A DNA stretch of 64,000 nucleotides from Escherichia coli (GTDB lineage: Bacteria > Pseudomonadota > Gammaproteobacteria > Enterobacterales > Enterobacteriaceae). The position numbers and the translations under genes were made by a program. Positions 429 to 540 of this stretch are shown piece after piece; positions within the stretch are counted from its first letter, which is position 1, and each line of letters begins with the position of its first letter. The notes below the pieces were generated by a model that ran no database searches, had not been told where the DNA came from, and was given only the letters and a program-made list of their open reading frames with translations. Where the stretch lies: the NCBI RefSeq assembly GCF_044647545.1, contig NZ_CP172818.1; one strand, written 5' to 3'.

Positions 429-540
429 CAACCCTGGCCCGGTACACTTGCTACCGGGCCTACAACGACAGCGAACCGTGGGCCAGAGAAGCGGCAACAC
501 AGGCGTAGCATACCGTTGGCAAATGTAGTACGGGGGGCAT

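Follow-up and report, generated by a model that had tools for sequence, protein, structure and literature searches.

The REP/BIME elements of the Enterobacteriaceae reportedly consist of palindromic units (PUs) of Y, Z1 and Z2 types (Stern 1984; Bachellier; Ton-Hoang 2012), and the REP between malE and malF is said to be a classical stabiliser (Newbury et al. 1987). REPs placed between co-transcribed genes raise the ratio of upstream to downstream expression, and REP325 (yjdM–yjdN; Harris et al. 2026 preprint) stabilises the message of its upstream gene and partly attenuates that of the downstream one. For both REP325 and the malE–malF REP the proposed role is dual, namely that of an exonuclease barrier and of a partial attenuator. 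Two further classes of element bear on the locus described here. E. coli RNAs whose 3′ ends have no U tract end directly after stable stem-loops, which are barriers to PNPase and RNase II (Dar and Sorek 2018). Ribosomes that terminate at a stop codon with a REP no more than 15 nt away are reported to stall there (Liang, Rudd and Deutscher 2015, as quoted in PMC12306157).

The spacer between yeaG and yeaH of E. coli contains a short stem-loop that shares features with each of these systems. As with REP325 and the malE–malF REP, it lies between co-transcribed genes and the upstream RNA exceeds the downstream RNA; however, the 12 hairpins arrayed in REP325 have a large effect, whereas yeaG is followed by one short hairpin with an apparent effect of about 2-fold. 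As with the ends of Dar and Sorek (2018), a steady-state 3′ end falls directly behind a stable stem-loop without a U tract. Those ends, in contrast, belong to Rho-terminated units and have a mild excess of C over G downstream, whereas the yeaG hairpin is internal to an operon and its flank has more G than C. Finally, as with the REPs attributed to Liang et al. (2015) in the source that quotes them, the stem begins close to a stop codon, 7 nt after the yeaG TAA, although ribosome stalling at yeaG itself is putative.

The stem-loop downstream of yeaG

The DNA analysed is a single 64-kb stretch (the window), which begins within yeaG. The features referred to below are the following, with coordinates in the window.

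426–428, plus strand: yeaG stop codon TAA (ORF 72–428, ending ...EWYLRVRKSS*; same end in annotated E. coli records)
436–465, plus strand: REP-type palindromic unit PU1, comprising the stem-loop 436–460 and the conserved foot and tail CTACAA to 465
465–466, plus strand: positions equivalent to the yeaG RNA 3′ ends measured in K-12, 5–6 nt 3′ of the stem
478–496, minus strand: dead remnant of an inverted Y-type REP unit, PU2, GTGGGCCAGAGAAG^CGGCA, with an 11-nt deletion and GTAG changed to GTGG
515–528, plus strand: conserved block GTTGGCAAATGTAG, complementary to the SdsR seed, just upstream of the yeaH Shine-Dalgarno sequence
532–543, plus strand: yeaH Shine-Dalgarno sequence GGGGGG (532–537) and start codon ATG (541–543), from the sequence, the ORF 541–1824 and annotation
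54840–54939, minus strand: sdsR (ryeB) sRNA gene (Rfam RF00111, 114 bits, E = 1.8e-21)

The 25-nt sequence GGCCCGGTACACTTGCTACCGGGCC has a single exact occurrence in the window, at 436–460 on the plus strand. It is made up of GGCCCGGTA, the loop CACTTGC and TACCGGGCC, and forms a stem of 9 perfect base pairs, 7 of them G–C, with a loop of 7 nt. PU1 is extragenic, lying inside the 112-nt yeaG–yeaH spacer. The first-pass annotation of 429–540 had reported a GC-rich hairpin without a T-tail just after the yeaG stop, at about 437–461. We confirm this structure, one base away from the position given, and the lack of a T-tail is equally clear: the 8 bases that follow the stem, TACAACGA, contain one T and no T tract, a T-rich tail is found in only 1 of 80 orthologous spacers, and a terminator scan did not call the hairpin at 436–460.

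RNA folding, which the same annotation had put forward as a check, gave −18.0 kcal/mol for the 33-nt hairpin segment compared with −8.9 ± 2.2 kcal/mol for shuffled versions (z = −4.1, with none of 200 shuffles as good). The hairpin on the minus strand is equally stable, at −19.1 kcal/mol. The spacer as a whole (420–545, 126 nt) is not unusually structured relative to shuffles (z = −0.55), and thus the structural signal comes from the hairpin at 436–460 alone. The minimum free energy fold also pairs CCCU (432–435) with the yeaH Shine-Dalgarno sequence; we rejected this pairing on the basis of the spacer-wide z of −0.55 and the lack of conservation of the bases.

Shuffling the 64-kb window gives an expectation of about 1.9 perfect stems of at least 9 bp with loops of 3–9 nt, and the expectation for a 112-nt spacer is roughly 0.003. 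The real window contains about 15 distinct hairpins of this kind, most of them terminator-like with A/T flanks. Because about two such stems are expected by chance in 64 kb, the significance of the yeaG hairpin rests on its location in the spacer and on its conservation, and not on the stem alone. When up to three mismatches are allowed the hairpin pattern occurs once in the window, against an expectation of 0.02. Rfam searches (positions 1–2200 at E up to 10, and the whole window at the gathering score) identified no family for the hairpin; the sole overlapping match, to RydC on the minus strand, is at chance level (E = 8.4, scoring 16.8 bits where the gathering score is 48).

Conservation and family of the hairpin

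Of 5426 complete E. coli genomes, 5424 carry a single copy of the yeaG–yeaH locus. We extended the comparison to the yeaG–yeaH junctions of 80 Enterobacteriaceae species representatives, in which the spacer ranges from 57 to 296 nt. Almost all of these spacers open with a G+C-rich hairpin 2–12 nt past the yeaG stop, with the gap mostly 6–8 nt, and the 5′ end folds significantly better than shuffles in 51 of the 78 distinct spacers (median z = −2.5). The foot GCCCGG...CCGGGC followed by CTACAA is common to Escherichia, Citrobacter, Enterobacter, Klebsiella, Kluyvera, Leclercia and many others, and in distant genera, where the sequence is unrelated, this position is still occupied by a G+C-rich hairpin that lacks a T tail. 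The hairpin has been lost or eroded in a few lineages (Citrobacter Cu233 and Raoultella terrigena) and is therefore dispensable. The spacer also collects repeats, with ERIC insertions in Citrobacter and Klebsiella.

The base pairing itself is conserved. In a MAFFT alignment of 37 orthologous first units, standard pairs occupy 91.5% of cells, as against 23–47% when the partners are slid. Changes on both sides are seen at 5 of the 11 pairs, and 22 cells carry double changes compared with 8.7 ± 2.4 after shuffling (none of 500 shuffles reaches 22), a covariation that is in part REP-family-wide variation and a shuffle test that is inflated by relatedness. Pair 8 is U–A in 21 sequences and C–G in 10. 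The ninth pair is A–T in E. coli and G–C in two other Escherichia species, and E. albertii keeps the helix through G–U pairs. Across a small sample of six E. coli spacers, namely that of the window and five others, the hairpin changes only in the loop or the innermost pair and the 8-bp core is unchanged.

The orthologous sequences also disclose the family to which the hairpin belongs. In Enterobacter and Kluyvera the ortholog hairpin reads TGCCCGGTGGCGC..GCGCTTACCGGGCCTACAA, and a BLAST search of a plasmid collection that includes several chromosome-sized records identified the Enterobacter-type sequence as a dispersed repeat, present at 315 places in 148 'plasmid' records. There are 40 or more copies in one 5.37-Mb K. 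pneumoniae record and 10–19 in large Enterobacter and K. aerogenes replicons, counts that come from BLAST and have limited sensitivity for queries this short. The copies that we inspected occupy unrelated spacers (hpaF–hpaH in Klebsiella and E. coli, argB–argH, gcvH–gcvP, znuB/ruvB and entF/fepC). They are near-identical (TGCCCGGTGGCGCTGCGCTTACCGGGCCTACAA) and start 6–9 nt after the stop codon of any upstream gene that is co-oriented. In most cases an inverted canonical Y-type REP, GTAGGCCGGATAAGCG...CATCCGGCA, comes next. The combination of the dispersed unit with an inverted Y-type REP is the architecture of a REP/BIME element.

We built a covariance model, R1, solely from eight of the dispersed copies (hpa, arg, gcv, znuB/ruvB and entF/fepC spacers) and used it to search the 64-kb window. 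The only significant match is 436–465 (25.7 bits, E about 7e-5 by a rough calibration). This match spans the full length of the model, with the 8-bp foot and the CUACAA tail aligned and 10 apical positions skipped. The next-best match scores 12.4 bits and falls on 61658–61696, where there is a degenerate unit of the E. coli Z1 type. In the orthologous spacers R1 finds PU1 on the plus strand (15–54 bits) and in many cases also PU2 on the minus strand, about 10–15 nt downstream.

Many orthologs therefore have a BIME layout of PU1 followed by an intact inverted Y unit, and this layout is vestigial in the window. Intact PU2, GTAGGCCGGATAAGCG.AGCGCATCCGGCA, is present in the aligned spacers L002, L006, L038 and L016. 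The 11-nt deletion and the point changes that killed it are common to E. coli, E. albertii and a third Escherichia lineage, while two other Escherichia lineages keep an intact PU2 in the spacer alignment. The PU1 stem has stayed perfect in E. coli while the neighbouring PU2 has decayed.

PU1 is a stable G+C-rich palindrome of 25 nt, compared with about 27–35 nt for canonical units, and has no internal bulge. The REP foot tetranucleotide CTAC is present at 460–463 and is followed by AA, and the CCTACAA tail is common to the dispersed copies. PU1 thus combines the palindrome, the CTAC foot, a match to the family model and an extragenic position a few bases past a stop codon, together with an inverted Y partner in its orthologs. 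It departs from the family in that only the 8-bp foot and the tail match, a 7-nt loop replacing the apical stem and bulge, and in that its partner unit is dead. Nor is PU1 present in many dispersed copies in the E. coli genome, as would be expected of a REP, the 42-nt segment occurring once per genome. The Klebsiella-type consensus is found at 1–4 places in 2875 of the 5426 E. coli genomes, or about half, again by BLAST with its limited sensitivity for such short queries. Among the Y, Z1 and Z2 types of REP/BIME unit, the closest to PU1 is a Z2-like variant, 'TGCCCGGTGGCGCTGCGCTTACCGGGCCTAC', which abounds in Klebsiella, Enterobacter and Citrobacter; relative to the E. coli Z2 consensus, we take the dispersed unit to be a Z2-like variant with compensatory stem changes.

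Other routes to family membership returned little. The K-12 RefSeq feature table marks no REP in the spacer, and is uninformative on this point because it marks none at the well-known REP325 either. A full-text literature search for CCGGGCCTAC retrieved unrelated primers only. The paper of Figueira (2015) contains no data for the spacer. A pattern search for further copies in the 4-kb ortholog loci and in a 40-kb Klebsiella stretch found almost none, these sequences being mostly coding.

In summary, the hairpin at 436–460 is best described as the surviving, shortened palindromic unit of an old REP/BIME element that occupies the yeaG–yeaH spacer throughout the Enterobacteriaceae; sister genera have many copies of this REP variant, of which E. 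coli has almost none. This identity, like the SdsR site at 515–528 considered below, goes beyond the first-pass annotation.

RNA 3′ ends, expression and a putative SdsR site

The first-pass annotation proposed that the hairpin could be an intra-operon processing or stability element that sets different expression levels for yeaG and yeaH, and took equal read-through and an absence of RNA 3′ ends near 461 as grounds for refutation. Published Term-seq data for MG1655 do contain such ends. For yeaG they give a 'primary' 3′ end at 1868879 on the plus strand in LB at OD 2.0 (mean 1211 reads) and another at 1868880 on the plus strand in M63 (762 reads), two conditions in which yeaG is expressed; no yeaG 3′ end is listed for LB at OD 0.4 (Adams et al. 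2021, PMC7815308, Supplementary file 1). We transferred K-12 coordinates to the window by an offset of 1868414, K-12 yeaG ending at 1868842 and the two spacers being collinear and both 112 nt long. The ends then correspond to window positions 465 and 466, so that yeaG RNA ends ...CCGGGCCUACAA, 5–6 nt behind the stem, as measured in a K-12 hairpin whose loop differs from that of the window strain at 2 positions. This placement of a steady-state end behind a stem-loop without a U tract is that of an exonuclease-protective 3′ structure. The peak is small, its 1211 and 762 reads comparing with 10^4–10^5 at neighbouring gene ends.

The RNA level also falls from yeaG to yeaH. Mean normalised counts are 2660.75 for yeaG and 787.22 for yeaH in one RNA-seq table and 5327.61 and 1791.56 in a second, independent one, corresponding to 2.2-fold and 2.0-fold more yeaG per base; these ratios are crude, as each baseMean combines strains and conditions and was simply divided by the length of its gene (1935 nt for yeaG, 1284 nt for yeaH). 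Both the 3′ ends and the roughly 2-fold excess of yeaG RNA agree with the proposal of an intra-operon element and of unequal expression, while its causal part, that the hairpin sets this difference, is correlative.

The other end of the spacer is also strongly conserved. Its last 30 nt, AGTTGGCAAATGCAGTACGGGGGGCAT-ATG, are nearly invariant across genera, and the block at 515–528 hardly varies among about 70 genera or species. In a seed-restricted duplex, SdsR nucleotides 13–19 and 22–28 pair with 515–528 at −18.2 kcal/mol. RIL-seq of nitrogen-starved E. coli recovered Hfq-dependent SdsR:::yeaG.yeaH.IGT chimeras in three of three replicates at both N− and N−24. These chimeras span K-12 positions 1868803–1868944, equivalent to window positions 389–530, with counts of 43, 36 and 65 at N− and 64, 98 and 149 at N−24. 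In the same nitrogen-starvation study, YeaH protein was up about 2-fold in a ΔsdsR strain. The RIL-seq chimeras, the conservation and the seed-restricted duplex together lead us to infer that 515–528 is an SdsR pairing site that controls yeaH translation.

Several other readings of this region were considered and set aside. Full-length duplexes of SdsR with the spacer were unrealistic end-to-end pairings that scored no better than shuffles or other tiles of the window, and were not used. The conserved block GTTGGCAAATGCAG does not fit a sigma-54 promoter on inspection, as its GG-to-GC spacing is about 4 nt too short. It is also not maintained as a small TGCA...TGCA hairpin, several genera deleting AATGCA and keeping only GTTGGCAGTAC. 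CsrA binding was dropped by eye, as there is no GGA there in E. coli.

Possible functions of the REP hairpin

We think it probable that the REP hairpin is an exonuclease-blocking, and possibly attenuating, element that stabilises a yeaG-only transcript. The hairpin would be transcribed within the yeaGH mRNA and fold into its stable G+C-rich stem-loop 7 nt past the yeaG stop. RNA polymerase would mostly read through it because there is no U tract. Some transcripts would then be cut or terminated farther downstream, in the untranslated spacer or in yeaH, and PNPase and RNase II would trim them in the 3′-to-5′ direction until they stall a few bases behind the stem. The product would be a stable yeaG-only mRNA with its end at ...CCGGGCCUACAA, and the net result about 2-fold more yeaG than yeaH message, with SdsR exerting separate control on yeaH translation. 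Both the participation of these nucleases and the assignment of the 3′ end and the step-down to the hairpin are conditional parts of this model. We favour an exonuclease barrier because the pattern matches the ends of Dar and Sorek (2018) and intra-operon REPs of the REP325 type. Genome-wide, REP-bearing genes do not generally have longer half-lives, an observation that counts against a stabilising function.

The same observations could arise if the hairpin is a decaying selfish REP with no selected role, at which exonucleases stall incidentally, and if the 2-fold difference stems from polarity or from 3′-to-5′ decay gradients. Such an origin is in keeping with the hairpin's membership of a REP family, the decay of its partner PU2 in E. 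coli, its loss from some lineages, the weak Term-seq peak and the use of the spacer as a dumping ground for repeats such as ERIC. However, the loop and flanks vary among the six E. coli sequences compared and the 8-bp core does not, and distant genera with unrelated sequence keep a G+C-rich hairpin without a T-tail at the same place. In addition, the compensatory change from A–T to G–C occurred within Escherichia, where this REP type is nearly absent, making gene-conversion repair from other copies unlikely. We regard a purely passive relic as a possible but somewhat doubtful account.

The exonuclease-barrier model takes the 3′ ends to be products of trimming. They would instead be products of termination if the REP hairpin, or the BIME, directly attenuates transcription by pausing RNA polymerase and provoking partial Rho-dependent termination. 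Attenuation at BIME and REP elements with partial Rho dependence has been documented (Espeli 2001, as cited by a later source; REP325), the hairpin sits in a 112-nt untranslated spacer, and RNA left untranslated when SdsR represses yeaH would become accessible to Rho. On the other hand, the flank at 461–540 is G-rich and not C-rich (19 C, 27 G), a mild argument against Rho loading within the spacer itself, and REP fragments of 2–4 hairpins gave no bicyclomycin sensitivity in the REP325 study. Supplementary file 2 of Adams et al. (PMC7815308) lists no Rho-termination region on this strand at the site in LB at OD 0.5; the absence is a weak test and carries little weight, because the nearest Term-seq condition, LB at OD 0.4, has no yeaG 3′ end. 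Overall, direct attenuation appears unlikely to be the main explanation.

A different kind of function would follow from the proximity of the stem to the stop codon. A terminating ribosome would have to melt the base of the stem, and the resulting stalling, mRNA cleavage and tmRNA action might lower YeaG synthesis. The 7-nt gap lies within the limit of fewer than 16 nt set for such stalling, and short gaps are the rule both in the orthologs (mostly 6–8 nt) and after the co-oriented stop codons that precede the dispersed copies (6–9 nt). However, yeaG RNA is more abundant than yeaH RNA, although an effect at the protein level would still be compatible with this. A translational brake on YeaG seems to us a fairly improbable role.

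BIMEs have been proposed to bind gyrase, IHF or Pol I or to organise the nucleoid, and the minus-strand hairpin is as stable as that of the plus strand; nevertheless, a role at the DNA level that makes the RNA hairpin irrelevant is very improbable, given that the E. coli BIME is reduced to a single short PU, that the REP325 study found no role in chromosome compaction, and that the E. albertii stem is kept by G–T pairs that are workable only as G–U in the sense RNA. A weak intrinsic (Rho-independent) terminator at the end of yeaG can be rejected with near certainty, for although an RNA 3′ end shortly after a G+C-rich stem-loop would fit one, the U-rich tract of 7–8 nt that should follow the stem is absent from E. 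coli, where TACAACGA has one T and the terminator scan was negative, and a T-rich tail is present in 1 of the 80 orthologs.

The retention of PU1 in E. coli, which otherwise almost lacks this REP type, could reflect its exaptation into a two-part switch, the other part being the SdsR site 50 nt downstream. On this speculative and rather unlikely proposal, SdsR and Hfq would stop yeaH translation during long starvation, the exposed RNA would be cut or terminated, and the hairpin would preserve a yeaG-only message. Such a switch would uncouple the kinase YeaG from its partner YeaH while both are expressed from a single promoter.

The REP hairpin would account for a yeaG 3′ end that had been published and left uninterpreted, and it adds one unannotated, degenerate unit to the known intra-operon REP stabilisers, a result that matters little beyond this operon. 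For the REP family, it provides a case in which many genera have a copy at the same orthologous site, although REPs are generally said to vary in position. Constructs or deletions that touch the spacer at 436–460 or 515–528 could alter the YeaG:YeaH ratio. For the starvation 'metabolic brake' formed by YeaG and YeaH, the findings suggest that synthesis of the two proteins is not necessarily tied to a constant ratio.

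Hairpins and RNA elements of the window

Perfect hairpins of at least 9 bp are more frequent in the window than chance would predict, with about 15 distinct examples against about 2 expected. Most have runs of A and T on either side, as bidirectional intrinsic terminators do; the hairpin that follows yeaG does not. Representative hairpins are listed here together with two RNA elements that matched Rfam models at gathering level:

10554-10579, 38892-38916, 43388-43413 and 63817-63843: perfect hairpins of at least 9 bp
38887-39347, minus strand: cspA-type thermoregulator leader
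19770-19855, minus strand: sroD

A candidate SdsR site upstream of yeaH

The spacer between yeaG and yeaH also carries a near-invariant block complementary to the seed of the small RNA SdsR, and the block and the sRNA gene lie within the same window:

515-528: block GTTGGCAAATGTAG, directly 5' of the yeaH Shine-Dalgarno sequence
54840-54939, minus strand: sdsR
54836-54980, plus strand: SraC/RyeA, the antisense partner of SdsR (Rfam gathering-level match)

Published RIL-seq data contain chimeras of SdsR with the yeaG-yeaH intergenic region, and we infer that the block is where SdsR pairs.

Repeat elements in the yeaG-yeaH spacer

The spacer retains a second, decayed REP unit (PU2) downstream of the yeaG hairpin, which is itself a REP-type unit (PU1):

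478-496: dead inverted Y-type REP unit, with an 11-nt deletion and GTAG changed to GTGG

The comparison is with the intact unit, which survives in two other lineages of Escherichia and in many other genera; the deletion is common to E. coli, E. albertii and Escherichia sp. E1V33. All but 2 of the 5426 complete E. coli genomes searched carry the yeaG-yeaH junction, and in 2 genomes it sits on a plasmid-labelled record. The K-12 RefSeq feature table (NC_000913.3; L082, L084) lists no repeat_region, even at REP325 between yjdM and yjdN, so the missing REP annotation there is uninformative.

Long orthologous spacers (195-260 nt) contain an ERIC element in five Citrobacter loci (L007, L008, L010, L013, L014) and in Klebsiella spallanzanii (L033). 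These calls rest on matches, with 1-4 mismatches, to the ERIC1R and ERIC2 primer sequences. The spacer is thus a recurrent landing site for several repeat families. The spacers of L057, L065 and L074 hold other large inserts.

REP units beyond the spacer

REP units also lie outside the spacer, in the following paired arrangements (BIMEs):

L036 and L038, 2817-2850 (plus) and 2864-2898 (minus): REP unit pair directly 3' of the yeaH stop
window 61658-61743: degenerate BIME, a Z1-like unit (TTGCCCGATGCGACGCTGTTGCGTCTTCTCAGGCCTAC) then a decayed inverted Y-like unit, in a spacer upstream of ORF 61769-62137 (minus strand)

The pair after yeaH, present in two species, is the same repeat as in the yeaG-yeaH spacer, which is also drawn to the operon's downstream end. 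Klebsiella-type REP units at dispersed sites begin 6-9 nt past the stop codon of a co-oriented upstream gene (L083, 20005-20034; L091 and L095; and L090, L094 and L096, where they occupy hpaF-hpaH spacers), the same spacing as at yeaG. This suggests that the whole Klebsiella-type REP family prefers sites just after stop codons.
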